The notes under the pieces: model-generated | The model's database searches: none | The model's input: only the letters and a program-made list of their open reading frames with translations | What the model was told of the DNA's origin: nothing | Part shown: piece by piece, positions 19,321 to 46,115 of the stretch | How positions within the stretch are numbered: the stretch's first letter is position 1 | How the letters are laid out: every line of letters begins with the position of its first letter | Position numbers and translations under genes: made by a program | Assembly (NCBI GenBank): GCA_934456365.1 | Contig: CAKSHC010000005.1 | Location: forward strand, 65,092-129,091 | DNA from: an uncultured Eubacteriales bacterium | Lineage (GTDB): Bacteria; Bacillota; Clostridia; Oscillospirales; UMGS1783 | Direction of reading: 5' to 3' | DNA: 64,000 nt

Positions 19321-19395
19321 GATATATCGATAGATAGCATAACGGATATGAATTAGAGGCAATTCCCAAAACCCGAAACGTGTGATATTATGCAG

Positions 19396-19415
19396 TTGTT
19401 CCGAAAAGAGAACAA
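19396..19415. promoter_or_regulatory. Inverted repeat TTGTTC-N8-GAACAA between a -10-like element and the adh RBS (candidate operator)
   Basis: ttgttccgaaaagagaacaa lies just downstream of 'tgtgatatta'. It resembles a Rex half-site (TTGT...ACAA) but is 2 nt longer than the 18-bp consensus. Confidence 0.35.
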
Positions 19416-19445
19416 AATTTTCTCAGAATTTGGAGGACAACGGTT

Positions 19446-27558: not shown

Positions 27559-27587
27559 TTGACAAACCCCCCGCAACTTGGTATCAT
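27559..27587 (+). promoter_or_regulatory. Promoter of tRNA-Gln
   Basis: TTGACA (27559-27564), 17-nt spacer, extended -10 TGgTATCAT (27579-27587), ending 15 nt before the tRNA 5' end. Confidence 0.6.
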
Positions 27588-27601: not shown

Positions 27602-27677
27602 GGGGGTGTAGCCAAGCGGTAAGGCAACGGACTTTGACTCCGTCATTGCGCTGGTTCGAATCCAGCCACTCCTGCCA
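27602..27677 (+). tRNA. tRNA-Gln (anticodon UUG)
   Basis: Folded by hand. Acceptor GGGGGTG/CACTCCT with two G-U pairs; U8 and A14 present; D-arm GCCA..AGGC. Anticodon arm ACGGA-CTTTGAC-TCCGT with TTG at 27634-27636. T-arm GCTGG-TTCGAAT-CCAGC, and an encoded CCA. Closely resembles the Bacillus tRNA-Gln as recalled. Confidence 0.85.
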
Positions 27678-27682
27678 GAAAA

Positions 27683-27711
27683 AGCACTTAGCGTTAAGCT
27701 AAGTGCTTTTT
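27683..27711 (+). terminator. Rho-independent terminator after tRNA-Gln
   Basis: Stem agcacttagc / gctaagtgct with loop gttaa, followed by tttt. Confidence 0.8.
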
Positions 27712-27976
27712 CAGTTCTATTCGCCTTGCAGCAAGTGAGCTCGCATCGCAGGGATAGTCGGCTTTCAGCCGAGCGGTATTTGCTTCGCGAGCTTAAGGGT
27801 GAATGGAGCACCTCTGCGACGAAGGCGCAACATCACGTTTGCGAAAACAAAAACATCACGGGGAGCAGTATATCAAAATAAGATACATCAGAATGTATTT
27901 TTCTTCTTCACATATCTCGCCTCCCGCCATCCGATCCGTGAAAAACAAATGTTTTTTAAAAAGAATCTTTAAAGGC

Positions 27977-28005
27977 TTGACTTCTTTTTCTTATAGTGAT
28001 ATATA
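27977..28005 (+). promoter_or_regulatory. Candidate promoter of TasA-like paralog A
   Basis: TTGACT, 17-nt spacer, extended -10 TGaTATATA, within an AT-rich leader. Confidence 0.55.
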
Positions 28006-28041
28006 TATGAGTTGAAATTATTACAAAGAGGAGTGATTCTC

Positions 28042-29994
28042 GTGTCTCGATCCCGTTCCTCCAAGCGCGCCCTCTTGCTGAGTGCACTGGCCATGCTCGT
28101 TTGCCTGGCCATGCTTGTCGGCTCCACCTTCGCGTGGTTCACCGATTCCGCCTCCACCGGCGTCAACTGCATCGTCGCGGGCGAGCTGAAGATCGATATT
28201 GTGAACGCTGCCGGCGAGTCCATGAAAAACGGCTCCCTCAGCTGGCAGAAGGCTCAGGACCATGAAGATGAGCAGGTTCTCTGGGAGCCCAACTGCACCT
28301 ATGCTCTTGAGCCCTTCCGCATCGTCAACCTCGGCACCCTCGCCCTCAAATACCGCATTGAGATCAGCGGCTTTGAAGGCGACCGCGAGCTGCTCGACGT
28401 CATCTCCTTTGAATATACCGAAGGCAACGCTGCCTACGATCTCTCCGCCGAGCGCACCCTCAAAAAGGGCGAGCAGACCGGCCTCATCACCATGACCGGC
28501 CACATGGACGAAAACGCCGGCAATCATTATCAGGGCATGACCCTTGAAAACATCGCCATCACCGTCTATGCCACCCAGGCTCCCGTCGAGGCCGACAGCA
28601 TCGACAACACCTACGACAAAGACGCCAACGGCAATCCCGATCATCCCGATTGGAGCGTGACCGCCAACGTCACCGCTCCCGTCGTCCCGGGCGAGGATAC
28701 TCTCCTCGAAAATGCCGATCAGACCGTTTCCCTCCTCGCTCCCGCCGGCTCGACCGACGCTTCCGAGCTCACCCTTGCCGTCGAGCCCGCCAAGAGCCCG
28801 GCCGGTGTGACCGTCGCCGGCGACCAGTCGGCCAAAACCTATGAGGTCAAGCTGCTGGATGAAAACGGCAATGCCGTCACCGCGAAAGACGGCGCTCTCT
28901 TCACCGCCAAGATCTTCATCGGCAAAAACCTGACCGGCGTCCGGCTCTTCCATAAGGATGCTGCCATGCCCGCCGATTCCTTCCAGTATGATCCCGCGAC
29001 CGGCGAGATCACCTTCCAGACCGCCTCCTTCAGCCCCTATACCGCGGTCTACGATAAGGTCGTCGCCCGGATCGGCGATACCTATTACGAAACCCTCGCC
29101 GATACCATCGCCGCCGTCGAGGAAAACGGCATCATCGACCTTGTCGAAAATGCCTCCATCTGCGAGTCGTCCAGCACCGCCGTCAAAAAGGGCTTCATCC
29201 TCAACGGAAACGGTCATAAGCTCTCGGCGGATAATCAGCTCCAGCTCCTCGCCGGCAAGACCGTTTTCCGGAATGTGACCTTCACCAGCCCCCGCCCGCT
29301 CTATGTCCAGGGCGCAACCTTTGTGCTGGAGGAAACGGCTGCCATCGATTCCAAGGTCAACGGCAATGCCGCCATCTGGTTCTATGGCAACGCCAAGGGC
29401 GAGATCAACGGTAAAGTCATCGCCCCCAATGCCTATGGCGTCTGCCTCAATACCGACGCGAAATTCGATTCCGTCCCCAACACCGTCTCCCTCAAGGGAG
29501 CCACGGTCGATGCCTGGGGCCCCGCCCTCTATGTCAACGGCTCCTTCGGCGGCCATTCGGTCACAGCAGTGGATTCGACCTTTATCAGCGACGACGAGGG
29601 CATCTATATTTCCGGCACGCTCGGCCACGGTCAGACGATCTCCCTGACCGGCTGCACCGTTGAGGGCACCACCGCCATCGAGGTCAAGCACAGCGACCTC
29701 ACCGTCGCCGACTGCGCCCTCATCGCCACCGGCGATCCCACCCAGTACGCCGAAAACAACAACGGCGGCACGGCCATCGGCTATTGCCTCGCCACCACCA
29801 GCAACAGCAAAAACGGCAAGATCGAGGCGACCAGCGGCACCATCACCATTTCCAACACCACCTATTCCTCGGTCGTCCCCGGCTGCGAAGTCTTCAATTC
29901 CGCCGCCGATGCCGACGGAAGCCATGGCGCTGTCATCGAGGGCTACGATCTCTCCCGCGTCCTCTATCCCGGGAAATTGACCCCCAACGCCTGA
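28042..29994 (+). CDS. SipW-type signal peptide / TasA-camelysin-like domain protein with Ig-like ('FSPY') and beta-helix C-terminal modules (paralog A, 650 aa)
   Basis: GTG 28042 lies 8 nt after an AGAGGAG RBS. 'SKRALLLSALAMLVCLAMLVGSTFAWFTDSAST' fits the SipW-cognate signal pattern. TasA-like blocks are 'GELKIDI', 'VNLGTLALKY' and 'YQGMTLENIAITVYATQ'. The C-terminus has repetitive G/N/T-rich strands ('VSLKGATVDAWG', 'ISLTGCTVEGTT'). Confidence 0.8.
   Translation: MSRSRSSKRALLLSALAMLVCLAMLVGSTFAWFTDSASTGVNCIVAGELKIDIVNAAGESMKNGSLSWQKAQDHEDEQVLWEPNCTYALEPFRIVNLGTLALKYRIEISGFEGDRELLDVISFEYTEGNAAYDLSAERTLKKGEQTGLITMTGHMDENAGNHYQGMTLENIAITVYATQAPVEADSIDNTYDKDANGNPDHPDWSVTANVTAPVVPGEDTLLENADQTVSLLAPAGSTDASELTLAVEPAKSPAGVTVAGDQSAKTYEVKLLDENGNAVTAKDGALFTAKIFIGKNLTGVRLFHKDAAMPADSFQYDPATGEITFQTASFSPYTAVYDKVVARIGDTYYETLADTIAAVEENGIIDLVENASICESSSTAVKKGFILNGNGHKLSADNQLQLLAGKTVFRNVTFTSPRPLYVQGATFVLEETAAIDSKVNGNAAIWFYGNAKGEINGKVIAPNAYGVCLNTDAKFDSVPNTVSLKGATVDAWGPALYVNGSFGGHSVTAVDSTFISDDEGIYISGTLGHGQTISLTGCTVEGTTAIEVKHSDLTVADCALIATGDPTQYAENNNGGTAIGYCLATTSNSKNGKIEATSGTITISNTTYSSVVPGCEVFNSAADADGSHGAVIEGYDLSRVLYPGKLTPNA
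28120..28200 (+). repeat. Conserved box 1, copy A (signal-cleavage site plus mature N-terminus)
   Basis: The first 48 nt, ggctccaccttcgcgtggttcaccgattccgcctccaccggcgtcaac, have 0-2 mismatches against the copies in B, C and D. Confidence 0.9.
28561..28617 (+). repeat. Conserved box 2, copy A (end of TasA-like domain, 'TVYATQAPVEADSIDNTYD')
   Basis: 3/57 mismatches to B and 5/57 to C, with a 32-nt identical core shared with C. Confidence 0.9.
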
Positions 29995-30008
29995 GCGGAT
30001 TTCAAAAA

Positions 30009-30040
30009 AGCTCTGTCCCATCCCGGGGCAGAGCTTTTCT
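30009..30040 (+). terminator. Terminator after paralog A
   Basis: 11-bp stem agctctgtccc / ggggcagagct (one G-U pair) with loop atccc, followed by tttctttg. Confidence 0.7.
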
Positions 30041-30073
30041 TTGTCTTTTGAATAATTTTTGCATTTAAGAGCG

Positions 30074-30089
30074 TTTTTTTTTTTTTTTT
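30074..30089. repeat. T16 homopolymer
   Basis: 16 consecutive T read directly from the sequence, ending 4 nt upstream of the -35 of the paralog B promoter. Confidence 0.95.
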
Positions 30090-30093
30090 GCCC

Positions 30094-30122
30094 TTGCATT
30101 TCGAATCGAATTGTGCTATACT
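30094..30122 (+). promoter_or_regulatory. Candidate promoter of paralog B
   Basis: TTGCAT, 17-nt spacer, extended -10 TGcTATACT. Confidence 0.6.
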
Positions 30123-30158
30123 TACGCAGAATTCGAAATCCAAAAGGAGTGATCGTCT

Positions 30159-32126
30159 GTGCCTCAATCTCAATCCACCCGGCGCTCGTTTCTGATCAGC
30201 GCCCTGGCTATGTTCCTGAGCTTCCTTTTGCTCATCGGCTCCACCTTCGCGTGGTTCACCGATTCGGCCTCCACCAGCGTCAACCGCATCGTCGCGGGCG
30301 AGCTGAAGATCGATATCCAGAATGCCAAGGGCGAGTCTTTGAAAAACGGCGCCCTCAACTGGCAGAAAGCAGAAGGCCATGAAGAGGAAAAAATCCTCTG
30401 GGAGCCGAACTGCACCTATTCCCTCGAGCCCTTCCGCATCGTCAACCTCGGCTCTCTCGCCCTGAAATTCCGCATCGAAGTCACCGGCTTCACGGGTGAC
30501 AGCGACCTGCTCGACGTCATCTCCTTTGCCTATGAATCGGAAGGGGAGAGCTTCGACCTCTCCGCCGAGCGCACCCTGAAAAAAGGCGAGCAGACCGGCC
30601 TCATCACCATGACCGGCCACATGGACAAAAACGCCGGCAACTACTACCAGGGCATGACCCTCGAAAGCATCGCCATCACCGTCTATGCCGCCCAGGCCCC
30701 CGTCGAGGCCGACAGCATTGACAACACCTACGACGAGCGCGCTCTCTATCCCGTCGTGGCCGCTGCTCCCATCGAGCTGGATGAAAACAATGCCCTCGTC
30801 AAGGATACCGTCATCACCTCCGGCGCCACCGCAGACGGCTCTCCCGCCGTCAAGGTCACCATCCCCGCCGGCACCCCGATGAAAGAAAACGCCACGATGG
30901 GCAAGATCTCCATCACGGAAGATGTCACCCCCGCCAACTTCCAGGTCGACATCACCCAGATGGATCCCAGAACGCTGGATATCCACATGGAAGGCCTCTC
31001 GGAGGAAAACACTAACCTCATCCGCGTCGAGTTCTATCTTGAGCCCGGCCTGGAAATCGTCGAGTTTTACCACAACGGCCGGAAAATGGACCGCCGCACC
31101 GCCCTGAAATGGCTCAGCAACGATCAGGACTTCTTCTACGATTCCGCCACCGGCAAGGTCACCATGCTCACCTCCAGCTTCTCGCCCTTCACCTATACCG
31201 CCGATAAGTTCCAGTGGCGCAATGCCGGCCGCTATGCCGCCGAATATTCCACCCCGGTCGATACCGGGAATAAGATTCTCACCATCGCCACCCCCGAAGA
31301 GCTCGCCCTCTTCGCCCATCAGATCACAAACGGGCAGATCAGCTACGCCGATTATACCATCCGCCTTGCCGCCGATATCGATCTGGGCGCCGGCTTCTGG
31401 ACCAGCATCAACGCCGGCAGCCGCCTCAACCGCGCCACCATCGACGGCCAGGGCCATACCATCCGCAACCTCCTCGTGCGCAACTGCACCAATTCCTCCG
31501 GCTATGGCTTCGCCTTCATCGGCGACGCCGGCTCCTCCTCCCTCACCATCCGCAACCTCACCTTCGATTCCGCCAATGTCAAATACGCCAAATACGGCAG
31601 CTATATGGGCAATGTCGGCGGCGTCGTCCTCGGCTATGCCTACGGCACCACCGTCTTCGATAACGTCACCGTCCAGAATAGCCTTGTCGAAGGCTACGGC
31701 AAAATCGGCGCCCTCCTCGGCATGGGTGCCCAGCCCGGCATGAAGATCACCTTCCGCAACTGCACCTCGCAGAATAACGAGCTCAAAGCCGTCTACAACG
31801 TCGGCGGCCTCGCAGGCAATATCCAGCGCGGCCAGGGCGCGGACAACACCACCATCGAAAACGCCACCGTGAAGAACATCACCTTCACCGCCGACCCCCG
31901 TGAAACCTACGCCGATGTCAACGGAACCGCCACCCTCAAGTCCAACGACCTCCCCTCCGGTGAGGACGTGGAAAAGGCCGCTTCCGGGAAATATTGGGTC
32001 TATGGCGGCTACCTCTGGGGCGGCTTCGCCGACTACTATGTTTCCTATGGCACAGCCTCCTACGATGCGCCCGTCACCGGCTCGGAAATGCTTCTTGCAA
32101 ACTCCGAACTTGTGATCAATCGCTGA
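30159..32126 (+). CDS. SipW-type signal / TasA-like domain protein with Ig-like ('FSPF') and GLUG-type beta-helix modules (paralog B, 655 aa)
   Basis: GTG start after an AAAGGAG RBS. The N-domain is about 80% identical to A. The C-module opens with 'ILTIATPEELALFAHQITNG...IRLAADIDLGAGFWTSI...ATIDGQGHTIRNL' and has repeats 'VGGVVLGY', 'IGALLGM' and 'VGGLAGNI'. Confidence 0.8.
   Translation: MPQSQSTRRSFLISALAMFLSFLLLIGSTFAWFTDSASTSVNRIVAGELKIDIQNAKGESLKNGALNWQKAEGHEEEKILWEPNCTYSLEPFRIVNLGSLALKFRIEVTGFTGDSDLLDVISFAYESEGESFDLSAERTLKKGEQTGLITMTGHMDKNAGNYYQGMTLESIAITVYAAQAPVEADSIDNTYDERALYPVVAAAPIELDENNALVKDTVITSGATADGSPAVKVTIPAGTPMKENATMGKISITEDVTPANFQVDITQMDPRTLDIHMEGLSEENTNLIRVEFYLEPGLEIVEFYHNGRKMDRRTALKWLSNDQDFFYDSATGKVTMLTSSFSPFTYTADKFQWRNAGRYAAEYSTPVDTGNKILTIATPEELALFAHQITNGQISYADYTIRLAADIDLGAGFWTSINAGSRLNRATIDGQGHTIRNLLVRNCTNSSGYGFAFIGDAGSSSLTIRNLTFDSANVKYAKYGSYMGNVGGVVLGYAYGTTVFDNVTVQNSLVEGYGKIGALLGMGAQPGMKITFRNCTSQNNELKAVYNVGGLAGNIQRGQGADNTTIENATVKNITFTADPRETYADVNGTATLKSNDLPSGEDVEKAASGKYWVYGGYLWGGFADYYVSYGTASYDAPVTGSEMLLANSELVINR
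30237..30317 (+). repeat. Conserved box 1, copy B
   Basis: 2/48 mismatches to copy A in the core. The following 33 nt (IVAGELKIDI) are also near-identical to A. Confidence 0.9.
30678..30734 (+). repeat. Conserved box 2, copy B
   Basis: accgtctatgccgcccaggcccccgtcgaggccgacagcattgacaacacctacgac. Confidence 0.9.
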
Positions 32127-32132
32127 AAAAGC

Positions 32133-32158
32133 GGACGCGCCGGAAATCCGGCGCGTCC
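32133..32158 (+). terminator. Terminator-like hairpin after paralog B
   Basis: Perfect 11-bp GC-rich stem ggacgcgccgg / ccggcgcgtcc with loop aaat. The T-tract is weak and interrupted (cttcccgtattttt). Confidence 0.55.
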
Positions 32159-32204
32159 CTTCCCGTATTTTTGCAGATTCGCAGGAAATTCCCTGGGTTT
32201 TTGC

Positions 32205-32233
32205 TTGCATCCGCGCCTTTGCGGTGCTATAAT
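32205..32233 (+). promoter_or_regulatory. Candidate promoter of the paralog C-D operon
   Basis: TTGCAT, 17-nt spacer, extended -10 TGcTATAAT. It has the same -35 hexamer and layout as the paralog B promoter. Confidence 0.6.
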
Positions 32234-32259
32234 CAATCCGTAAAAAAGGAGGAATTTTT

Positions 32260-34020
32260 ATGACAAAAGCAAAATCCTCAAAGCGCGCTCTCTTGCTGAG
32301 CGCCCTGGCCATGCTCGTGTGCCTCGCCCTCTTCGTCGGCTCCACCTTCGCGTGGTTCACCGATTCCGCCTCCACCGGCGTCAACAGCATCGTCGCCGGC
32401 AGGCTGGAGGTCTCCCTTCTCAATGCCGCCGACACCGCCCCGCTGGGCGACGAGCCCCTGCGCTGGGTCGCCGCGGATAACCGCGAAACCGAAATCCTCT
32501 GGGAACCGGGCTGCACCTATTCCCTCGAAGGCTTCCGCATCCAAAACAGCGCCAGCCTCGCCCTCAAGTATAAGATCGCCATCACCGGCCTCGTGGGCGA
32601 TTCCGAGCTTCTCGATGTGCTTTCCTTCTCGGTCGAAGGCCTGACCGGCGCCGAATCTGCCGCCGCTCTCGATGGCTTTGTCGGAACCCTCCTTCCCGGA
32701 GAAACCACCGACCCCATCGTCATCACCGGCCATATGGATAAAAACGCCGGGAACCGCTATCAAGGTATGACCATTGAGGGGATCAACATCACTGTCTACG
32801 CCACCCAGGCTCCCGTCGAGGCCGACAGCATTGACAACAACTACGACGAGAACGCCGACGGAACCCCCGATACCCCCGATTGGAGCAATCATGTTACCGT
32901 CACCGCTCCCGTCGCGCAGGAAGGGGACACGGTGCTGACCGATAATCCCGATAACCCCACCATCACCGTCACCGTCCCGCAGGATTCGACCGGTGCCGAA
33001 AGCCTCACCCTTGTAAAAAAGCTGGTGGAAACCCCCGCTTCCTTCACTGCGGCGGCCGATGCCTCTCCGATCTGCTATGAGATCAGCCTCGTCGATCAGG
33101 ACGGCAATGCCGTCACCGCGCAAAACGGCTTCTTCAAAATCGGGCTCCGGCTCCCGTCGGACATCGCGCTGACCGGCTTCTATCACCGGAACGAGGCGTT
33201 CACCAAAGTCACCTCGCTTTCTAAGCTGACGGCAGTGGATCAGTATTATTTCCATGCCTCCAAGGGCCTTCTCACCTTCACCACCGACGACTTCTCTCCC
33301 TTCACTGCCACCTATCGCTTCGGCGGCGGCAAGGGCACAGCGGCTTCCCCCTATCGCATCACCTCCGCAAAGCAGCTGCGCGGGATGGAAAAGGTCGGCG
33401 GAACCTACCGTCTGGATGCCGACATCGTCCTGGACGATGAGCTCACCCTTTCGGGCAAAACCTGGACTCTCGACCTCAACGGTCATTCTCTTTCTCTCGC
33501 GTACGGCGAGGGCGTAAGGCCCGTCTTCTATGGAACCATCTCGCTGGGGATTAAAGGAAACCTGACGATCCGGGATTCCAGCGCCGATCAGACCGGTCAG
33601 GTCTTCGGTCCCGATCTCAATTCGAGCGAGTATGCCCCCTGCGCCGTCCGCTGCGTCGGCACCAATAAGCTCAATATCTACGGCGGCCGCTTCCTCAGTC
33701 GCGGCGAGGGCAATTCCTGCATCTTCCTCAGCACAGGGTATGGCCCCAGCCGCGCCGCCATCGTTCATATCTACGGAGGTCTTTTTGAGTCGGAATCTCC
33801 CTCCAACGGGACCTACTACGTGCTCAATCATCAGGATTCGAACACCACCGGCTGCAAGATCTACGTTCATGCCGGCACCTTCGTCAACTACAACCCGGGC
33901 GTGACCAAGGTGGATCCGGACAATGCCCGTACCGGCAAGATCCTTCTGGCCGACGGCAGCTCCACAGCCGCTCAGGAGCAGGAAAACGGCGATATCTGGT
34001 ATATCGTTTCGGCAAAATAA
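32260..34020 (+). CDS. SipW-type signal / TasA-like domain protein with Ig-like ('FSPF') and solenoid modules (paralog C, 586 aa)
   Basis: ATG after an AAAAAGGAGG RBS. 'SKRALLLSALAMLVCLALFVGSTFAWFTDSAST'. The C-module contains 'SPYRITSAKQLRGM...YRLDADIVL' and then three 'I-x-(I/V)-x-GG-x-F'-type strands. Confidence 0.8.
   Translation: MTKAKSSKRALLLSALAMLVCLALFVGSTFAWFTDSASTGVNSIVAGRLEVSLLNAADTAPLGDEPLRWVAADNRETEILWEPGCTYSLEGFRIQNSASLALKYKIAITGLVGDSELLDVLSFSVEGLTGAESAAALDGFVGTLLPGETTDPIVITGHMDKNAGNRYQGMTIEGINITVYATQAPVEADSIDNNYDENADGTPDTPDWSNHVTVTAPVAQEGDTVLTDNPDNPTITVTVPQDSTGAESLTLVKKLVETPASFTAAADASPICYEISLVDQDGNAVTAQNGFFKIGLRLPSDIALTGFYHRNEAFTKVTSLSKLTAVDQYYFHASKGLLTFTTDDFSPFTATYRFGGGKGTAASPYRITSAKQLRGMEKVGGTYRLDADIVLDDELTLSGKTWTLDLNGHSLSLAYGEGVRPVFYGTISLGIKGNLTIRDSSADQTGQVFGPDLNSSEYAPCAVRCVGTNKLNIYGGRFLSRGEGNSCIFLSTGYGPSRAAIVHIYGGLFESESPSNGTYYVLNHQDSNTTGCKIYVHAGTFVNYNPGVTKVDPDNARTGKILLADGSSTAAQEQENGDIWYIVSAK
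32338..32400 (+). repeat. Conserved box 1, copy C
   Basis: 0/48 mismatches to copy A in the core. Confidence 0.9.
32791..32847 (+). repeat. Conserved box 2, copy C
   Basis: actgtctacgccacccaggctcccgtcgaggccgacagcattgacaacaactacgac. Confidence 0.9.
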
Positions 34021-34032
34021 AGGAGGCGCAAA

Positions 34033-35355
34033 ATGAGCAGTAAAAAAACAAGGCGCTCTCTTCTGACCAGCCTTTTGGCGCTGGCGCTCTGCCTCGTCCT
34101 CTTTGTCGGCTCCACCTTTGCGTGGTTCACCGATTCCGCCTCCACCAGCGTCAACCGCATCGTCGCGGGCGAGCTGAAGGTCGACCTTCTCCTCTATCGC
34201 AACGGAGCCTATTCCTCCATTAAGAACGAAGACGGCGCCCTCTTCGGCGGGAAAAATTCCCTCGTCGCGCAAAACGACCCGGCCGATACCCTCTGGGAGC
34301 CCGGGAAAACTCAGATCGTCTTCCTCGCCGTGAAAAACCTCGGCAGCCTGGCGCTGAAATATCAGCTTCTGATCGACACGCAGGACCTCGGCCTGTGCGG
34401 CGCGCTTGAGTATGCCGTGATGACCGGAGCCGGCCCCGAAAACGTCAACGCCGCCGAAATGCGCTGGAGCGAATACGAAGAAGCCGCCGACCAAACCGGC
34501 TTTCTCCCCGCCGGGCGCACTCTGGCCGCCTCCGGCGACCTCTTTGAGGCCGACGAGAGCGATCGGATCGCCCTCATCCTCCACATGGATGAAAACGCCG
34601 GCAGCGCCTATCAGGGGAAATCCGTCGAGCTGGATGTCTCGGTCGTCGCCACGCAGGCCGTCCATGAGGCCGACAGCATCAACAACAGCTACGACGAACG
34701 CGCCCTTTTCCCGGCCCTGACCGCCGCCTCGCTGAAAGAGGCTCTCGCCTCCGGCGGCGCCATCACGCTCGGGAAAAACATTAGCCTTCCCTTATCCGGT
34801 GAGGGCGACGGCGTTGTTGAGCAGATGAACGTTTCGAAGGATACCACCCTCGATCTTTCCGGCAAAACGCTCGCGATCGATCTCGATTCCTTCGAGGGCG
34901 AGCTCTCCTATGTCCCCACGATCATGACCGTCCACGGAGCCACCCTCACCGTCGAAGGCAACGGCGTCCTCAACGCCGAAGGCGGCTACAACACGGTCTA
35001 TGGCATCAACGTGATGGACGGCGGTAAGGTCATCATCAACAGCGGCACCTTCTATGGCGCCATGTCGGCCGTCCAGGTGCAAAATGGCGAGCTGGAAATC
35101 AACGGCGGCTTCTTCGATCTGGCCCCCACCATCAAGGCCGCCGCGCCCGTGTATGCGAAGTATCTCATCAATGCCATCGACCAGTCCTTCCGCGACGGCA
35201 CGGCAAAGATTCAGATCAAAGGCGGCACCTTTGTCAACTTCAACCCGGCCGACCATCCCGAAGCCGGAGAAACCACCTATGTGGCCGCCGGCTACCACGT
35301 TGTCTCCGAACCTCAGTCCAACGGCGATACCTGGTATACCGTCGTGGCGGATTGA
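34033..35355 (+). CDS. SipW-type signal / TasA-like domain protein fused directly to a solenoid module (paralog D, 440 aa)
   Basis: ATG lies 7 nt after an AGGAGG RBS and 12 nt after the stop of C. 'LALALCLVLFVGSTFAWFTDSAST'. The TasA-like domain is longer (insertions) and there is no FSPF module. The C-terminus has 'IINSGTF', 'LEINGGFF', 'IQIKGGTFVNFNP' and 'GDTWYTV'. Confidence 0.8.
   Translation: MSSKKTRRSLLTSLLALALCLVLFVGSTFAWFTDSASTSVNRIVAGELKVDLLLYRNGAYSSIKNEDGALFGGKNSLVAQNDPADTLWEPGKTQIVFLAVKNLGSLALKYQLLIDTQDLGLCGALEYAVMTGAGPENVNAAEMRWSEYEEAADQTGFLPAGRTLAASGDLFEADESDRIALILHMDENAGSAYQGKSVELDVSVVATQAVHEADSINNSYDERALFPALTAASLKEALASGGAITLGKNISLPLSGEGDGVVEQMNVSKDTTLDLSGKTLAIDLDSFEGELSYVPTIMTVHGATLTVEGNGVLNAEGGYNTVYGINVMDGGKVIINSGTFYGAMSAVQVQNGELEINGGFFDLAPTIKAAAPVYAKYLINAIDQSFRDGTAKIQIKGGTFVNFNPADHPEAGETTYVAAGYHVVSEPQSNGDTWYTVVAD
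34108..34185 (+). repeat. Conserved box 1, copy D
   Basis: 2/48 mismatches to copy A in the core. Confidence 0.9.
34642..34695 (+). repeat. Conserved box 2, copy D (more diverged)
   Basis: Encodes 'VVATQAVHEADSINNSYD'; the core gaggccgacagcat is retained. Confidence 0.7.
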
Positions 35356-35373
35356 TCCAACCACCCAATCAAA

Positions 35374-35412
35374 ACGGTGCAGCTCGTGCGAGCTGCGCCG
35401 TTTTCTTCGCTT
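35374..35412 (+). terminator. Terminator after paralog D
   Basis: 13-bp stem aacggtgcagctc / gagctgcgccgtt (one G-U pair), followed by ttcttcgctttt. Confidence 0.7.
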
Positions 35413-35543: not shown

Positions 35544-38234
35544 ATGCCGGATTACGATAAAGCGTCTGCCGAAGAAACGCTGTATGCGCTGCAAACCGGC
35601 CCAACGGGATTAACCTCCCGGCAGGCGCAGGACCGTCAGGAAAAATACGGGATCAATCAATTAAAAAAAGCGGAAAAGCCGGGCTTTCTGAAACGCTTTT
35701 TTCTCCAGCTCAAGGATCCGATGCTGCTGATTTTACTGGCTGCCGCCGCCGTCAGCGCCCTGACCGGGATGCTCTCGGGGGAGAGCGAATGGGCGGAGAC
35801 GATCATCATTCTGGTCGTCGTCCTGCTCAACGCCCTCCTCGGCGTGATCCAGGAGCAAAAGGCCGAAGCGGCGATCGAGGCGCTGCAAAGCATGACGGCC
35901 GCCACCTGTAAGGTCCTGCGCGACGGGAAACCGGTCGTTCTGCCGTCTGCCGCCCTTGTCCCCGGCGACGTCGTTTTGCTGGAAGCCGGCGACGCCGTCC
36001 CGGCCGACGGGCGGATCCTGGAAAGCGCCTCCCTGAAAATCGAGGAAGCCGCCCTGACCGGCGAATCCGTGCCGGTCTGCAAAATTTCCGAAGCGCTCGG
36101 AGCCCCGCGGGAGCAGGCCGAGATCCCGCTCGGCGACCGGAAAAATATGTGCTATATGGGCTCCACCGTCGTCTACGGGCGCGGCAAAGCCGTCATCACC
36201 GCAACCGGGATGGCCACCGAAATGGGCAAGATCGCCGGCGTGATCTCCGCCGCAAAAGAGGAGCAAACCCCCTTGCAGAAAAAGCTGGATGAGCTCGGCG
36301 GGCTTCTCTCCAAAATGGTGCTCGGGATCTGCGTGTTCATCTTCCTTTTCAACCTTTTCATGGCGCGGGGCGAACTGGCCGCAGGCGGCCATGCCCTTGA
36401 AGTCATCTTAAAAACCTTTATGGTGGCCGTGTCGCTCGCCGTCGCCGCCATCCCGGAGGGGCTGGCAACGGTCGTCACCGTTGTCCTCTCGATCGGGGTC
36501 ACGAAAATGGCAAAGGAAAATGCCGTCATCCGCCGGCTGACCGCCGTGGAGACCCTTGGCTGCACCCAGGTCATCTGCTCCGATAAAACCGGTACCCTCA
36601 CCCAAAATAAAATGACGGTCGTGGAGCATCTCGGAGAGAAAGCCCTTGTCGCCTCGGCCATGGCTCTGTGCTCAGACGCTTTCTTGAACAGCGAAAACAA
36701 AGCCGAAGGCGAGCCCACCGAATGCGCCCTGGTGAATTTCGCCTGTGACGCCGGCTTGAAGAAGCAGGAGATGGAAGCGCGGCTGCCGCGCGTGGGCGAG
36801 GCTCCCTTTGATTCCGGGCGGAAAATGATGTCCACCATCCACCGCGCCGAAAAAGACTTCGTGCAGTATACCAAAGGCGCTCCCGACGTCGTGATCGCCC
36901 GCTGCGCAAGTTATTTGGAAAACGGGAAAATCTTTCCCATGACCGATGAAAAACGGCAGGAGCTCATAAGCGCCAATAAAAACATGGCCGACCGGGCACT
37001 GCGCGTTTTGGCCGTCGCCCGGCGGGACTGGGAAGAAAAACCGGCGGAAACCACCCCGGAAGTTCTGGAGCAAAATCTCACCTTCCTCGGCCTTACAGGG
37101 ATGATCGACCCGGTGCGCCCGGAAGTCAAGGCCGCCATCGAGGAATGCCGCCAGGCGGGAATCTGCGCCGTGATGATTACCGGCGACCATAAAGATACCG
37201 CCGTCGCCATCGCCAAAGAGCTGGGGATCATTCAGGACGCCTCCCAGGCCATCACCGGCGCCGAGCTGGACTCGCTTTCCGACGAGCAGCTTCTGCGAAA
37301 GGTTCGGGAAACGGGCGTCTACGCCCGGGTGCAGCCCGAGCATAAAACCCGGATCGTCAACGCCTGGAAATCCCTCGGCGCCGTAACCGCCATGACGGGC
37401 GACGGTGTCAACGACGCACCCTCCATAAAATCCGCCGATATCGGAATCGGAATGGGGATCACGGGAACCGACGTCACAAAGAATGTTGCCGATATGGTTT
37501 TGGCCGACGATAATTTTGCCACGATCGTGCTCGCCGTCAAGGAAGGCCGCCGCATCTATGAGAATATCCGAAAAGCCATCCAGTTTCTGCTCGCTTCCAA
37601 TATGAGCGAGGTTTTGGGCGTTTTTGCCGCAGCAATGCTGGGCTTTACCCTGTTGAATCCTGTGCATCTTCTGTTTATCAATCTGATCACGGATTGCTTC
37701 CCCGCGCTGGCGCTCGGTATGGAGAAAGCCGAGCCGAATATCATGAGCCGCCCGCCCCGGAGCGCCAAAGAGGGATTTTTCTCCGGCGGCCTGCTTGCGG
37801 ATGTTCTCTATCAGGGAATTCTGGTCAGCGCGCTGACGATCCTCTCCTATCTCATCGGCCATTTCTTTGAAAGTGGGGTCTTCTCGCTGCCCTCGGGCGC
37901 GTCCCGGCATGGGATGACGATGGCGTTTCTCACCATGTCCATGTGCGAGATCTTCCATTCCTTCAACCTCCGTTCGCAAAGAAAATCCGTTTTCACCCTG
38001 CGGGGGCAGAATAAGGTTTTGTGGGCCGCCATGATCGGCTCGTTGATTTTGACAACCGCTTTGCTCGAGATCCCGTTTCTGGCCGATGCCTTCGGCTTCA
38101 CCCCGGTCGGATGGGCGGAATACGGAATCGCCCTCGGCCTGGCCTTTTTGGTGATTCCCGTTGTGGAAGCGGTCAAGTTTTTCCAGAGAAAATGCGCAAA
38201 AAAGAAAGAAAAACCGGGCAAAGCGGCAAACTGA
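35544..38234 (+). CDS. Calcium-translocating P-type ATPase (P2A/PMCA-SERCA-like)
   Basis: 897 aa with 'CSDKTGTLTQNKM', 'MITGDH' and 'TGDGVNDAPS', and N-terminus 'GLTSRQAQDRQEKYGINQL'. ATG 35544 follows a GAAGGAGG RBS. Confidence 0.85.
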   Translation: MPDYDKASAEETLYALQTGPTGLTSRQAQDRQEKYGINQLKKAEKPGFLKRFFLQLKDPMLLILLAAAAVSALTGMLSGESEWAETIIILVVVLLNALLGVIQEQKAEAAIEALQSMTAATCKVLRDGKPVVLPSAALVPGDVVLLEAGDAVPADGRILESASLKIEEAALTGESVPVCKISEALGAPREQAEIPLGDRKNMCYMGSTVVYGRGKAVITATGMATEMGKIAGVISAAKEEQTPLQKKLDELGGLLSKMVLGICVFIFLFNLFMARGELAAGGHALEVILKTFMVAVSLAVAAIPEGLATVVTVVLSIGVTKMAKENAVIRRLTAVETLGCTQVICSDKTGTLTQNKMTVVEHLGEKALVASAMALCSDAFLNSENKAEGEPTECALVNFACDAGLKKQEMEARLPRVGEAPFDSGRKMMSTIHRAEKDFVQYTKGAPDVVIARCASYLENGKIFPMTDEKRQELISANKNMADRALRVLAVARRDWEEKPAETTPEVLEQNLTFLGLTGMIDPVRPEVKAAIEECRQAGICAVMITGDHKDTAVAIAKELGIIQDASQAITGAELDSLSDEQLLRKVRETGVYARVQPEHKTRIVNAWKSLGAVTAMTGDGVNDAPSIKSADIGIGMGITGTDVTKNVADMVLADDNFATIVLAVKEGRRIYENIRKAIQFLLASNMSEVLGVFAAAMLGFTLLNPVHLLFINLITDCFPALALGMEKAEPNIMSRPPRSAKEGFFSGGLLADVLYQGILVSALTILSYLIGHFFESGVFSLPSGASRHGMTMAFLTMSMCEIFHSFNLRSQRKSVFTLRGQNKVLWAAMIGSLILTTALLEIPFLADAFGFTPVGWAEYGIALGLAFLVIPVVEAVKFFQRKCAKKKEKPGKAAN

Positions 38235-38244
38235 GATCTTTTTC

Positions 38245-38273
38245 TTGCCCGGGGCGCGCCTTTGCGGTATGAT
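38245..38273 (+). promoter_or_regulatory. Candidate promoter of trmO
   Basis: TTGCCC, 17-nt spacer, TATGAT. Confidence 0.4.
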
Positions 38274-38303
38274 ATAGAAAAAGCCCAAAAGGAGAGCTCC
38301 TGC

Positions 38304-38978
38304 ATGGAAATCCGCCCTGTCGCCACGATCGAAACCCCCTTTCGCGAAAAATTCGGCATCCCGCGCCAAAGCGGCCTGGCCGGCGCGCCGGGGCGCATTG
38401 TGTTTGAGCCGGAGTTCCGGATGGCGGCCGCCCTGCGTGATCTCGAGGGCTTTTCCCATCTTTGGCTGCTCTTCGATTTTTCCCTGGCCCATCGCGCCGA
38501 ATGGTCGCCCACCGTTCGCCCGCCCCGCCTGGGCGGAAACCGGCGGGTGGGGGTGTTTGCCAGCCGGTCGCCCTTTCGCCCCAATCCCATCGGCCTTTCC
38601 TCGGTGCGCCTTTGCGGGGTGGAGGAGGACCCGGAAAAAGGGCCCGTTTTGCTGGTGGAGGGAGTCGACCTGCTCGACGGCACCCCCATCTTTGATATCA
38701 AGCCCTATCTGCCCTTCACCGATTCCCATCCAAACGCCCGCGGCGGCTATGCCGAAGAGCAGCTCGGCGAGCGCCTGTCGGTTCGCGACCCGCAGGGACT
38801 CCTAAATCGGCTTCCCGAAAGGCTTCGCCGGCTTGCCGAGGAATGCCTGCGCCAGGATCCGCGCCCATCCTATCAGGAAGACCCCGAACGGGAATACGGA
38901 ATGCGGCTGGAGGATTGGAATATCCGCTTTTTTGTGCGCGAAAACTGCGCCGAAATCATCGAAATTTCGCAAAAATAA
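38304..38978 (+). CDS. trmO: tRNA (t6A37-N6)-methyltransferase TrmO (YaeB/TsaA family)
   Basis: 'IETPFREKFGIPRQSG', 'FSHLWLLF' and 'RSPFRPNPIGLS' are YaeB family motifs. ATG 38304 follows an AAAAGGAGAG RBS. Confidence 0.8.
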   Translation: MEIRPVATIETPFREKFGIPRQSGLAGAPGRIVFEPEFRMAAALRDLEGFSHLWLLFDFSLAHRAEWSPTVRPPRLGGNRRVGVFASRSPFRPNPIGLSSVRLCGVEEDPEKGPVLLVEGVDLLDGTPIFDIKPYLPFTDSHPNARGGYAEEQLGERLSVRDPQGLLNRLPERLRRLAEECLRQDPRPSYQEDPEREYGMRLEDWNIRFFVRENCAEIIEISQK

Positions 38979-38983
38979 ATGGA

Positions 38984-39012
38984 AAAAGCACCCCAAAAGG
39001 GTGCTTTTTTCC
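38984..39012 (+). terminator. Terminator after trmO
   Basis: aaaagcaccc / gggtgctttt hairpin with loop caaaa, followed by a T-run. Confidence 0.75.
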
Positions 39013-39061
39013 TGCTTTTTGGGCGAAAAACGCGGGCAAAATAGCAGAAAAGGAGGGTTTT

Positions 39062-39901
39062 ATGAAGCGTTTTCGCGCCGTTTTGGCGATTTTTTCGGCT
39101 CTTTTGTGCCTGTTTGTGATCTTTTCAACGGCAAAAGTGCGCGGAGAAGAGGCTGTGGAGCTGCCGATTGTGATGTATCATCATCTTTCCCAGCAGCAGA
39201 ATCGATGCAATGCCTATGTTTTGCCGGTCTCACAATTTGAAAAAGACATCCAATATCTCAGCGAGCAGGGCTATCAGAGCGTCACCGTCAGTGATCTTCT
39301 GGCCTGGCAGGAGGGAGAAAGCCTTCCCGAAAAGCCGGTGATGATCACCTTTGACGACGGTTTTGAAAGCACGCTTGCCTATGCCGCCCCCATTTTGGAA
39401 AAATACGGGATGCGGGGCGTGGTTTCCATCATCGGAAGCGTGGTGCAGACCTATACCGACGCGCCCGACCACAACCTCGCCTATTCCTATCTCAACTGGG
39501 AAGAGGTGGAGAAAATCGCGCAGAGCGGCCCCTTTGAGGTGCAGTGCCACACCTGGGATCTCCACGGCCTTTCGGGGCGCACCGGCTGCAACCAGAGAAA
39601 AGGGGAGGATGAAGCCTCCTATAAGGCCATGCTGCGCCGCGACCTGATGAAATTTCAGGAAACCTATGCCGCCCACACCGGGCAGAAAACCACCGCCCTC
39701 GCCCTGCCCTACGGAGCGGGAAATGAAAATACCCGCTCGGTCGCAAAGGAACTGGGCTTTCGCGCCGTGTTCACCTGCGAAGAGCGGGTCAATCGGTTGA
39801 CGGGGAAGGAAGACGAGCTTCTGCGCCTCGGGCGCTTCAATCGCCCGACCGGGGAAAGCAGCGCCGCCTTTTTCGGAAAGAAGTTTCAAGGGACGGTATG
39901 A
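39062..39901 (+). CDS. Secreted polysaccharide deacetylase (NodB homology domain)
   Basis: Signal peptide 'AVLAIFSALLCLFVIFSTAKV'. NodB motifs 'ITFDDGFES' and 'HTWDLH'. Confidence 0.8.
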   Translation: MKRFRAVLAIFSALLCLFVIFSTAKVRGEEAVELPIVMYHHLSQQQNRCNAYVLPVSQFEKDIQYLSEQGYQSVTVSDLLAWQEGESLPEKPVMITFDDGFESTLAYAAPILEKYGMRGVVSIIGSVVQTYTDAPDHNLAYSYLNWEEVEKIAQSGPFEVQCHTWDLHGLSGRTGCNQRKGEDEASYKAMLRRDLMKFQETYAAHTGQKTTALALPYGAGNENTRSVAKELGFRAVFTCEERVNRLTGKEDELLRLGRFNRPTGESSAAFFGKKFQGTV

Positions 39902-40683
39902 GTGCGCAGATAATCGCACCAGATCGCATAGTAGGAGGGGTAGAGATGCACCCCGTCGGCGGTGTAGTCGGCGGGCATGGCGTCGTTTTCATCGGCAAAG
40001 CACCAGTGGGTTTGCAGGAGATAAACGCCCTCCTCGCGGGCCATGCGGCAAAGCGCTTGATTGGCGCGGGCGATGTTTTCCTTTGAGAAAACGGAGGCCG
40101 ACCAGGTTTTTTCCGCGATGACCGGGAAAATCGTTTGCACATAAATCGCGGCGTCCGGCTGCGCGGCGCGCGCCTTGCGGATCAGAGCGGCATAGTTTTC
40201 GCTCCAGGGCTCGGGATCGGATCCCATTTCGTTGATGCCCAAAAGGAAATAGATTTTGCCGTAGGAGCGGCTTTGCAGCCGGGCGGCAAGGGCATCGCTT
40301 TGCAGGGTGCCGAGCACGGTGGCGCTGGTGGCGCAGAAATAATCGGCATTTTTCAGATTTCCGAACAGCTCCAGCCCATTGGTGAGAGAATCGCCGATGA
40401 AGAGCGCGTCGTCGAAATAGGAATCCGGCACCGCGTCGCCAAAGGGAACGGGAAGCGAGGGGGAAAGGGAATAAACGGAATCGGCCCGGCGCAGCGCGAT
40501 CGGCTCGAGGCCGCCGGCTGCCCGGCGTTCTTCCTCTGAAAGGCTGGGAAGGGGCTCCTGCGGCGCGCTCGGGCGGGGCAGGAGAAGGATCAGCGCGGCG
40601 ATCAGAAGAAGCAGAACCAAAGCGCCGAGGATCCACGCGGCCCGCGAAGGGCGGCGCTTTCTTTTTTCCTGGGAACGGGGCAT
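39886..40683 (-). CDS. Membrane-anchored SGNH/GDSL hydrolase
   Basis: TM 'AAWILGALVLLLLIAALILLL'. Block I 'FIGDSLTNG' and block V 'ADGVHLYP'. ATG 40683 follows an AAGGAGG RBS. The 3' end overlaps the convergent deacetylase gene by 16 bp. Confidence 0.75.
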   Translation of the reverse strand: MPRSQEKRKRRPSRAAWILGALVLLLLIAALILLLPRPSAPQEPLPSLSEEERRAAGGLEPIALRRADSVYSLSPSLPVPFGDAVPDSYFDDALFIGDSLTNGLELFGNLKNADYFCATSATVLGTLQSDALAARLQSRSYGKIYFLLGINEMGSDPEPWSENYAALIRKARAAQPDAAIYVQTIFPVIAEKTWSASVFSKENIARANQALCRMAREEGVYLLQTHWCFADENDAMPADYTADGVHLYPSYYAIWCDYLRTHTVP

Positions 40684-41961: not shown

Positions 41962-42002
41962 ATAAGTGGCTGCAAGTGGCTGCTATGTGGCATGAAGTGG
42001 TT
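41962..42002 (+). promoter_or_regulatory. Four direct (A)AGTGG/GTGG repeats at about 10-bp phasing: candidate MraZ operator
   Basis: ataAGTGGctgcaAGTGGctgctatGTGGcatgaAGTGGtta. The GTGG motifs start at 41966, 41976, 41987 and 41997, immediately downstream of the -10. Confidence 0.65.
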
Positions 42003-42030
42003 AATTTGCCGAAGAAAGGGGAGAAGAGCC

Positions 42031-42450
42031 GTGCTGTCCGGAACCTATCGTCACACCCTGGACGCGAAGGGGCGGGTGATCGTGCCGGTGCGTTTTCGCG
42101 GGGATCTGGGCGAGAGCTTTATGGTGACGCGGGGATTGGACGACTGCCTGGCTCTTTACTCGATGAAGGAATGGCAGCGGCTGGAGGAGAAGATCGCCGC
42201 TTTGCCGATGGCCTCTTCCCGGCAGATCCAGCGGTATCTTTTTGCCAACGCCTATCCGGCCGAGATCGACAACAACGGCCGCACGGTGATCCCGCCGGAG
42301 CTGCGGGAGTTTGCGGGGCTGACCAAGGATGTGGTGATCGTGGGCGTGAGCTCGCGGGCCGAGATCTGGGACGCCGGGCGCTGGGAGCAGAGCGAGGTTT
42401 CCTCGCCGAGCACGAGCGTGACGCAGATGATGATCGAACTGGGGCTTTGA
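42031..42450 (+). CDS. mraZ: Transcriptional regulator MraZ
   Basis: 'LSGTYRHTLDAKGRVIVPVRFR' plus a second SpoVT-AbrB repeat 'EIDNNGRTVIPPELR'. GTG 42031 follows an AAAGGGGAG RBS. The tracked ATG at 41992 lies inside the operator repeats. Confidence 0.85.
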   Translation: MLSGTYRHTLDAKGRVIVPVRFRGDLGESFMVTRGLDDCLALYSMKEWQRLEEKIAALPMASSRQIQRYLFANAYPAEIDNNGRTVIPPELREFAGLTKDVVIVGVSSRAEIWDAGRWEQSEVSSPSTSVTQMMIELGL

Positions 42451-42451
42451 G

Positions 42452-43414: not shown

Positions 43415-43778
43415 GCGCCGGACGCGCGTGTCTCCGGCTTTGTGCCTGGCTGTTCTGCTGCTGGGCGGGCTGATCGTGGGCAAGCTGATGACCAACGCGC
43501 AGTACAACGAGCGGGCGAGCTACCTAAGCGGGCTCAAGGATGAATACGAAACCTGCTGTAACGAGCAAATTCAGCTGGATGTGCGCCTGGGCAAGCTGGC
43601 CAATCTGGACAGTATTGAGGAGATCGCCGTGACCCAGCTGGGGATGAGCAAGATCACCCAGCATCAGATCGAGTATGTGAACCTGGGCGGGGAGGACTAC
43701 GCCGAGGTGATGGAGGGCGACAGCGGGCTGGGCGGGGTTTTCCGCAGCTTTTCGATGATTTGGGAATATTTGAACTGA
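43386..43778 (+). CDS. ftsL: Cell division protein FtsL
   Basis: 130 aa with a basic N-terminus, a single TM 'ALCLAVLLLGGLIVG' and then a coiled-coil-like region. Position between rsmH and the PBP gene. Confidence 0.7.
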   Translation: MQKINRKPNKRRTRVSPALCLAVLLLGGLIVGKLMTNAQYNERASYLSGLKDEYETCCNEQIQLDVRLGKLANLDSIEEIAVTQLGMSKITQHQIEYVNLGGEDYAEVMEGDSGLGGVFRSFSMIWEYLN

Positions 43779-43868
43779 CCCTTGCCTACAAATAGATTGT
43801 ATGCGAAGGCTGACAGCCGCTGCGACGCCAGCGGCTGTGCGCATATCAGGCCAGAAGGAGGAACCGGC

Positions 43869-46088: not shown

Positions 46089-46115
46089 TACCAAGCAGGG
46101 CTGGGAGCGCTGGAT

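Follow-up and report, generated by a model that had tools for sequence, protein, structure and literature searches.

Fibers of the TasA superfamily, which include those of TasA, CalY, BsaA, AbpA, and AbpX as well as Tafi and threads, have so far been seen as biofilm scaffolds polymerized from small, single-domain subunits. A TasA subunit in the fiber lends its N-terminal strand to the subunit that follows, and its C-terminal tail is ordered only on assembly, when it contributes to the intersubunit interface. The donor strand of BsaA from Clostridium perfringens is locked by an isopeptide bond between Asn and Lys, the formation of which is catalyzed by Glu. Surveys of the TasA and BsaA families have reported operons of paralogs, for which heteropolymers have been proposed, and two-domain tip proteins have been proposed for Tafi loci. 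A 64,000-nucleotide stretch of DNA from an uncultured Eubacteriales bacterium of the order Oscillospirales (assembly GCA_934456365.1, contig CAKSHC010000005.1, positions 65,092 to 129,091), here called the window, contains four tandem genes, A to D, in which a signal peptide and a TasA-like N-terminal domain (N-domain) are followed by large C-terminal modules ending in a payload. The array belongs to a very large, uncharacterized clostridial branch of the TasA superfamily. With somewhat better than even confidence, it is read here as a satellite array of four paralogs whose products attach or polymerize by donor-strand complementation, displaying their payloads on the cell surface or on a matrix fiber.

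Gene array and export signals

Four co-oriented open reading frames (ORFs) were found by ORF scanning on the forward strand: A (positions 28042-29994; 650 amino acids [aa]), B (30159-32126; 655 aa), C (32260-34020; 586 aa), and D (34033-35355; 440 aa). The same four genes had been listed in a preliminary description of this DNA, made from its letters alone, the sequence observations of which were right in every particular when set against the ORFs and an alignment of the paralogs. The product of A comprises a SipW-type signal, the TasA-like N-domain, a linker, an immunoglobulin (Ig)-like domain, and a predicted right-handed β-helix. The product of B consists of signal plus N-domain (residues 1 to 199), an Ig-like middle domain (~197 to 345), and a GLUG-type repeat module (~346 to 655), and that of C consists of signal plus N-domain (1 to 204), an Ig-like middle domain (~206 to 348), and a payload of the C/D type (~349 to 586). 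The product of D carries a signal and an N-domain with insertions (1 to 226), directly followed by a C/D-type payload (227 to 440), the middle domain being absent.

Gene A starts with GTG, 8 nt 3′ of a Shine-Dalgarno sequence (AAAGAGGAG), and its close homologs P0001 and P0002 are also 650 aa long. The G+C content at third codon positions (GC3) of genes A to D was 0.76 to 0.81, like that of real genes elsewhere in the window. Antisense ORFs of 692 to 850 aa overlie the array on the reverse strand (28021-30099, 29964-32516, and 32278-34665); their GC3 of 0.56 to 0.59 was far under that of the sense genes, and they were therefore regarded as shadow ORFs of a high-GC coding strand rather than as genes. 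Direct DNA repeats (68 to 92% identical) extend over the 5′-terminal ~600 nt of the genes, which is the N-domain part; the four are tandem paralogs and not a chance resemblance. Gene conversion of the 5′ ends was considered and rejected, as DNA identity across the signal and donor segment (76 to 86%) was unexceptional and third-position identity was similar.

Residues G27 to T39 (GSTFAWFTDSAST) were invariant across A to D in the paralog alignment. The curated cutoff (19 bits) of the NCBIfam model TIGR04088 (cognate_SipW) was exceeded by all four products (20.0, 25.6, 25.3, and 27.7 bits for A, B, C, and D, respectively), which bears out the SipW-cognate signal proposed earlier. In A, the signal peptide occupies residues 1 to 31 (28042-28134, forward strand) and has a K/R-rich n-region, a hydrophobic h-region, and the ending ...GSTFA. 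In the hhalign register, A31 stands opposite A27 of TasA, the residue preceding the mature TasA N terminus in PDB 8aur, and from this register, cleavage is predicted between A31 and W32, to give a mature N terminus of W32-F33-T34-D35. Assuming cleavage after A31, the aromatic residue at mature position 2 and the acidic residue at position 4 agree with the TasA-superfamily signature, a donor-strand pattern reported in the AbpX preprint.

Homology and predicted fold of the N-domain

The N-terminal part common to A to D spans ~195 residues, of which ~165 make up the N-domain after the signal, and ends in ATQAxxEADSIxNxYD (paralog alignment). With the signal included, a profile of the N-domain family aligned with a profile of the TasA/CalY family over 176 columns (hhalign probability, 98.0%; E = 1.5e-12). 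After removal of the signal and the FxD motif, the family-versus-family comparison recovered the segment from the donor strand to NxGxLAxK (90%; E = 1.6e-6) and, co-linearly and independently of the donor-strand segment, the last two strands, NxYQG...ATQ (74 to 78%; E ~2e-5). A TasA/CalY family profile was used since a single TasA sequence (that of PDB 8aur_A) was too weak a query; against that sequence, the N-domain profile reached 11.7%, with the last strand alone aligned. The aligned blocks were those matched by eye in the preliminary description, so the block-by-block resemblance to TasA claimed there corresponds to remote homology; the TasA motifs quoted there were correct, the TasA sequence used being identical to that of 8aur_A. 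Profile comparisons thus place the N-domain in the TasA superfamily as a true though distant relative, compact and divergent, with a predicted fold that is compatible with this placement. It lies outside the Pfam and TIGR families of TasA, CalY, and BsaA in the strict sense.

Monomer structure prediction, suggested as a check in the preliminary description, was run on A with AlphaFold2 (AF2), and the N-domain emerged as a confident β-sandwich core. In the model of residues 1 to 200, the predicted local distance difference test score (pLDDT) was >90 over residues 50 to 180 and <50 over residues 35 to 42; in the full-length monomer model, residues 27 to 46 had a pLDDT of <50. An N-terminal strand that is unstructured in both monomer models is expected of a strand that needs a partner. 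The best Foldseek matches of the N-domain were the donor-strand-exchange pilins CS17, CfaB, FimF, and CsuA/B, together with FimH-family folds, and CfaB was matched again for the N-domain when the full-length model of A was used. The archaeal TasA-like protein AbpA (7ueg) ranked 11th (E = 9.9e-3; TMt = 0.36).

Conservation was assessed in a sample of 265 collected family members, which was also used for architecture. The most conserved segment of the family corresponds to residues 32 to 53 of A (WFTDSASTGVNCIVAGELKIDI; 28135-28200, forward strand), the presumptive donor strand and hinge on the basis of conservation and of its alignment to donor strand 28 to 38 and the hinge of TasA. Within it, W32, F33, D35, I44, and G47 were 100% conserved, T34 and L49 were 99.6% conserved, and N42 was 91% conserved. 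The β-sandwich core (residues 54 to 182; 28201-28587, forward strand), placed by AF2, Foldseek, and hhalign, carries the motifs WEPG, NxGxLALK, GHMxExAGNxYQG, and ATQ; its conserved motif residues are W81-E82-P83, N96, L100, K103, and Q179 (E82, 100%; K103, 93%).

The core is followed by an acidic linker, E-x-D-S-x4-Y-D-x2-A (residues 183 to 200; 28588-28641, forward strand), in which E183, D185, Y191, and D192 were 100% conserved and S186 was 99.6% conserved. The linker is predicted to be disordered in the monomer, with a pLDDT of <50 in both the N-domain and the full-length models; in the latter, the low-confidence stretch spans residues 182 to 202. The motif itself (28588-28626) directly follows the ATQ strand in the chain and has equivalents in B, C, and D; short single-domain homologs end in ATQxxNNP instead. 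An invariant ExDS...YD tail that is disordered in the monomer parallels the C-terminal segment of TasA, and it could act in contacts between subunits, in Ca2+ binding, or in processing. The N-terminal strand and the tail are both conserved and both disordered, and the N-domain is most economically interpreted as a putative donor-strand module that would tether or polymerize the payload-bearing proteins.

Middle domains and payloads

The full-length AF2 model of A (mean pLDDT, 85.2) has four parts, namely, the N-domain, a low-confidence linker, an all-β domain, and a region of short strands. The all-β domain is an Ig-like middle domain (residues 208 to 338; 28663-29055, forward strand; strands with a pLDDT of >90) that ends in SFSPYT. 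In the alignment, FSP(Y/F)T ends a middle module common to A, B, and C, and these modules are mutually homologous (hhalign, 100%), so the model and the profiles agree with the earlier statement that the chain runs on into an Ig-like module in these three products.

The payload of A (residues 342 to 633; 29065-29940, forward strand) is confidently predicted to be a right-handed parallel β-helix, with ~45 short strands and a pLDDT mostly of >90, resembling glycoside hydrolases (GHs) and lyases. Its Foldseek matches included GH87 (6k0q; E = 8.8e-6), GH28 (4c2l), GH49 (3wwg), and an alginate epimerase/lyase (8jaz), as well as the Vibrio matrix lyase RbmB (9ozl) and a phage tailspike (6nw9). The payloads of C and D aligned with each other at an hhalign probability of 100%, and the β-helix of A aligned with them at 96.4% and 96.7%, respectively; by this homology to A, the C and D payloads are probably β-helix related. 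The payload of B aligned with that of A or C at 75 to 79%, over a short N-terminal cap only. It contains 33-residue GLUG-like repeats with GG(V/L)xG motifs at residues 484, 517, and 549 and gave weak Pfam matches to Pectate_lyase_5 and DUF4957; repeat periodicity and these matches point to a solenoid-type module, and a B-type homolog, P0312, passed the Pfam Glug model.

By sequence, the solenoid-like payloads are of three types, two of them distantly related, and they extend 215 to 455 aa past the TasA-like domain. At 440 to 655 aa in total, A to D fall outside the ~200 to 260 aa of single-domain subunits of the TasA, CalY, and BsaA type. Solenoid-like modules had been proposed for all four products; the proposal holds for A by AF2 and Foldseek and for C and D by homology to A, and for B, it stands on the repeats. 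The further claim of four different C-terminal modules was borne out as three sequence types; homology links the middle modules, one payload type serves both C and D, and the payload of A is a distant relative of theirs. The payloads of A, B, and D had no match among PDB sequences, and no window payload had a significant Pfam match or a sequence-level match to any carbohydrate-active enzyme (CAZyme) family in the Pfam and PDB sequence searches. The Pfam search that had been suggested for the C-terminal parts returned the weak matches in B and nothing significant.

Family size and architecture

An exhaustive search with a profile of the N-domain by itself returned 9,819 representative clusters (clustered at 50% identity) at an E value of ≤1e-3 and 3,997 at an E value of ≤1e-30. 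Among the best 150 matches, the N-domain was always at residues 1 to ~200 of proteins 227 to 849 aa long. At least 150 residues followed the N-domain in 259 of the 265 members (median, 429; maximum, 1,706), and just 2 members were essentially single domain. A genome scan of species representatives yielded at least 586 confirmed stretches. Carriers among the matches listed included Oscillospiraceae, Acutalibacteraceae, Ruminococcaceae, Butyricicoccaceae, Lachnospiraceae, Christensenellaceae, and Anaerovoracaceae, with Faecalibacterium prausnitzii, Butyrivibrio crossotus, Yeguia hominis, Brotomerdimonas butyrica, and Lentihominibacter faecis among those named. Tandem arrays of two to seven paralogs were common in related genomes.

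When the payloads of 88 members were compared with Pfam, matches were found to Beta_helix (4), Glug (4), Pectate_lyase_5 (3), M26_N (2), and SH3_3 (1). None of the family clusters looked up bears a name. Payload fusion defines a large family that has no name and is not a local peculiarity; the survey of related genomes that the preliminary description had suggested showed it to be the norm in a family of thousands. No characterized example or description of the payload-bearing architecture was found in the literature searched, in line with the earlier remark that none was known.

Genomic context

Family genes elsewhere are usually preceded by a gene for an archaeal-type (SipW-like) signal peptidase, and a SipW-like match was present in 44 of 77 related loci. 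These peptidase genes pass TIGR02228, their other strong match being the SipW model. Adjoining the SipW-like gene is a gene for a single-domain homolog of ~184 aa, found in 40 of 76 loci (e.g., positions 8338-8892 of locus L010 and 7093-7647 of locus L002), with the pattern …CLCITTFALVYASVSVENNLFHTGxVKINL…FEPG…GNExQ…CAEATQTKNNPNKLF. This short homolog passes Pfam PF12389 and aligned with the window N-domain over 160 columns at an hhalign probability of 99.0% and with TasA at 88.6%. It has the N terminus …TTFALVYASVSVENNLFHTG… and neither the FTD motif nor the ExDS...YD tail; lacking the FTD motif, it may stay membrane anchored or be processed differently, which makes it a candidate for the base or the core of the system. 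Upstream sequence of 3 kb or more was available for 51 loci; both partners were present in 33 of them, SipW only in 5, the short protein only in 1, and neither in 12.

Larger loci were observed in Faecousia and Acutalibacteraceae (L075, positions 8049-19757; L043, positions 3952-15572; and loci L041, L044, L046, L061, L064, and L065). They contain two SipW paralogs, short TasA/BsaA-like proteins that fall into several classes and have signals like SLAWFS, TLAYYS, and AYAYFS, and a protein of ~214 aa with a signal and a C-terminal transmembrane helix; taken together, these genes look like a full pilus-type locus. Weak matches to TIGR04090 were given by some of the short subunits encoded in related loci. 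In Brotomerdimonas and Lentihominibacter (L023, positions 2952-4265; L033, positions 6042-7169), the SipW-like peptidase is 375 to 437 aa long, with a long C-terminal extension past a catalytic part of ~190 aa, and the TasA-like protein beside it is 440 to 448 aa long, with its TasA-like region at residues ~270 to 360.

Within the window array, a weak promoter-like site lies 5′ of gene A (27968-27997, forward strand; 9 of 12 consensus matches); since such sites were no more numerous than expected from shuffled sequence, it is a candidate only. Terminator-like hairpins follow gene A (30006-30038, forward strand; 14-bp stem and T-run) and gene B (32133-32158; a GC-rich palindrome of undefined strand, called on the reverse strand, with an 11-bp stem containing 10 G-C pairs), and another closes the array after gene D (35371-35404, forward strand; 15-bp stem). 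Genes C and D are probably cotranscribed, because only 12 nt separate them.

Neighbors of the array in the window include genes for GH94, Rex, tRNA-Gln, a P-type ATPase, TrmO, and a polysaccharide deacetylase. The tRNA-Gln gene (anticodon TTG; 27602-27677, forward strand) lies between the GH94 gene and gene A, preceded by a strong promoter-like site of its own at 27559-27587 (TTGACA-17-TATCAT, including TG) and followed by a terminator hairpin at 27678-27712; an Rfam scan of the region from 27 to 36 kb returned nothing besides this tRNA. Because tRNA genes often serve as integration points, genes A to D might have been inserted here. In GC content, the array is no different from its surroundings.

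The gene for the P-type cation (Ca2+-type) ATPase (35547-38234, forward strand) lies directly 3′ of the array, a position that is probably coincidental; Ca2+ drives donor-strand assembly in the AbpX/cannulae branch of the superfamily (AbpX preprint). The GC skew of the window turns from negative to positive at ~36000-40000, with a cumulative minimum near 36 to 38 kb and genes mostly on the forward strand on both sides, and the switch could mark an origin or terminus of replication or the edge of a rearrangement. Positions 7879-15927 and 41992-55634 seem to hold a glycogen-metabolism cluster and a cell-division/cell-wall (dcw) cluster ending in ftsZ, as read from the first ~40 residues of each translation, and would be ordinary housekeeping surroundings. 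The window FtsZ reached no more than ~65% identity to any entry in the species collection searched, its matches being to uncultured Clostridia/Oscillospiraceae.

Proposed assembly and alternative explanations

In the favored reading, donor-strand attachment, the proteins would be exported by Sec, and an archaeal-type (SipW-like) peptidase encoded elsewhere in the genome would cut after TFA31. The freed N-terminal strand would enter the acceptor groove of another TasA-like domain by donor-strand complementation, the partner being either a paralog or the ~184-aa single-domain homolog that accompanies SipW in canonical loci. The β-helix payloads would in this way be tethered to, or polymerized into, a cell-surface or matrix fiber, where they may bind or cut polysaccharides or mediate adhesion.

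Several results weigh against this proposal. The 64-kb window contains no SipW gene (no tblastn match to a SipW-like gene at an E value of <1e-2), no short homolog, and no further ORF with a SipW signal, and it is this absence that leads the array to be read as a satellite, which it looks like. Products A to D missed the gathering threshold of Pfam PF12389 (Peptidase_M73; 22.5 bits), at 15.2, 14.1, 15.4, and 21.8 bits, respectively, with matches confined to residues ~10 to 55, the signal and first strand; many homologs exceeded the threshold, but solely over residues 8 to 54. Of the two models named in the preliminary description for residues 1 to 195, TIGR04088 was thus passed, and Peptidase_M73 was not. 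TIGR04090, the BsaA family model, gave no match to A to D at an E value of ≤0.1. Neither TasA nor another relative came up when PDB sequences were searched with one N-domain sequence or with a 26-sequence profile. The Foldseek matches of the N-domain were all weak (E, 1e-3 to 1e-2, with none at ≤1e-3; TM-score, 0.3 to 0.46), and the TasA structures 5OF1 and 8AUR were absent from the best 50. No catalytic or binding residues were identified in the payloads, for which no test of GH or polysaccharide lyase catalytic residues was made. Conservation of residues 32 to 48 could stem in part from recognition by the signal peptidase rather than from strand donation, and a payload of 215 to 455 aa on every subunit might sterically hinder polymerization.

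An unlikely but credible alternative is that the proteins are monomeric β-helix enzymes or adhesins, secreted or wall associated, in which the N-terminal sandwich is a SipW-substrate or spacer domain or a carbohydrate-binding module (CBM) and no donor-strand assembly takes place; the four genes would then simply encode exoproteins that act on glycans and have diversified. With the full-length model, the top Foldseek match was a GH87 α-1,3-glucanase (628 columns), itself built of a β-sandwich and a β-helix, although the TM-scores to GH87 were low (0.22 to 0.25). Foldseek matches of the N-domain included the CBM3b′ modules 2wo4, 2wob, and 6d5b, but co-linear profile homology to TasA/CalY reaches past the signal, and the 99 to 100% conservation of the donor-strand-equivalent segment and the disordered tail is hard to square with a passive spacer. 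Genomic context is divided in a similar way. SipW and the short partner are missing from the window and from 12 of 51 related loci, the closest homolog from a different organism (P0003) is encoded by a solo gene amid housekeeping genes, and the window neighbors include GH94 and glycogen enzymes (the latter read from translation starts only). Synteny of the family with SipW-type peptidases and single-domain TasA-like homologs is nevertheless strong.

A bolder form of the donor-strand proposal, which seems rather improbable, is that the proteins build bottle-brush heteropolymeric fibers by donor-strand exchange with the short homolog, nearly every subunit bearing a different β-helix payload. If true, this would be an undescribed, cellulosome-like principle by which modules that bind or degrade glycans are displayed multivalently at the surface. 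The principle would be widespread among the abundant Clostridia of the gut (Oscillospiraceae, Acutalibacteraceae, Ruminococcaceae, Faecalibacterium, and Lachnospiraceae), and satellite arrays like that in the window could enlarge payload repertoires.

A covalent variant, in which donor strands are exchanged and then locked as in BsaA, appears doubtful. It would join donor Asn42 to acceptor Lys103 by an intermolecular isopeptide bond, with Glu82 as the catalyst, giving covalent decorated fibers. BsaA, of the same superfamily, uses N35-E56-K74, and N42 (91%), E82 (100%), and K103 (93%) occur in comparable order, with an E-to-K spacing of 21 versus 18 in BsaA. Both N42 and K103 were present in 214 members, N42 only in 17, K103 only in 22, and neither in 1 (Fisher's exact test, P = 1.0), and the substitutions at both positions are conservative polar ones. 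In a heteropolymer, the N42 and K103 partners would sit on different proteins, so that uncoupled losses are possible; as observed, the uncoupled losses leave the lock unsupported, and together with the missing TIGR04090 match, they led the idea to be downgraded. The proposal that A to D are camelysin-type (MEROPS M73) metalloproteases, suggested by the Pfam name and the weak PF12389 matches, is very improbable and was rejected, as those matches span the signal and first strand only, no HExxH motif was seen in the N-domain sequences, and the M73 assignment of CalY itself is viewed in the literature as a likely misidentification.

The pilin-like module described here is the constant N-terminal handle of thousands of multidomain proteins of gut Clostridia. 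If the handle mediates donor-strand attachment, it would represent a new route for anchoring and displaying adhesins or polysaccharide-active modules, beside sortase pili, S-layer homology (SLH) domains, and cohesin-dockerin systems, in organisms important to the ecology of the gut, and an entry point to how uncultured Oscillospirales attach to glycans and process them. The invariant ExDS...YD linker and the N42/E82 pair offer specific determinants that can be put to the test.

Comparison with known systems

The products of A to D share with TasA and CalY, the subunits of Bacillus biofilm matrix fibers (5OF1 and 8AUR), the TIGR04088 signal, profile-profile homology, a β-sandwich core, and the co-linear motifs FxD, GxLxL, PG, NxGxLAxK, and NxYQG...ATQ. 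They are also alike in that the C-terminal tail lacks order in the monomer and in that canonical loci carry a SipW-type peptidase gene beside the subunit genes. The window core, however, has ~150 mature residues, versus 234 in TasA, and is without the helical insertions of TasA; WEPG with an invariant Glu stands where TasA has KPGD, and the ExDS...YD linker is invariant in the window family. TasA and CalY are single-domain proteins, whereas the window proteins add 215 to 455 residues of Ig-like domain and β-helix payload.

BsaA and BsaB of C. perfringens (TIGR04090; Kivimaki et al., bioRxiv 10.1101/2024.11.04.621531) are likewise clostridial, SipW-dependent members of the TasA superfamily with an Ig-like fold, encoded by operonic paralogs, for which donor-strand exchange has been proposed, and the N/E/K pattern is comparable. 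Unlike the window proteins, BsaA is single domain; the window proteins have neither a TIGR04090 match nor covariation support for an isopeptide bond, and the window contains neither SipW nor a von Willebrand factor A partner of the BsaC kind.

Among CAZymes and adhesins with β-helices (GH87, GH28, GH49, alginate epimerase/lyase, RbmB, and tailspikes), the likeness lies in the fold of the A payload and in the matches of some family members to Beta_helix, Pectate_lyase_5, or Glug. The difference lies in the attachment, as the window payloads are joined to a TasA-like domain and not to CBM, SLH, dockerin, or LPXTG modules.

The layout of a pilin-type domain for incorporation by strand complementation, followed by one or more outward functional domains, is shared with the proposed Tafi tip proteins (TafC/NJ7G_2827). 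The tip adhesins FimH and CfaE of chaperone-usher pili have an analogous two-domain layout. In the window proteins, unlike these two-domain tip adhesins, the pilin-like domain is N terminal and would donate its N-terminal strand, with no chaperone-usher or twin-arginine translocation machinery. Given that payloads are present in 259 of 265 members and that arrays of two to seven paralogs are common, the family does not consist of rare single tip proteins. By analogy, the window proteins would act most like subunits of the TasA superfamily, while also resembling the two-domain tip adhesins of donor-strand pili.

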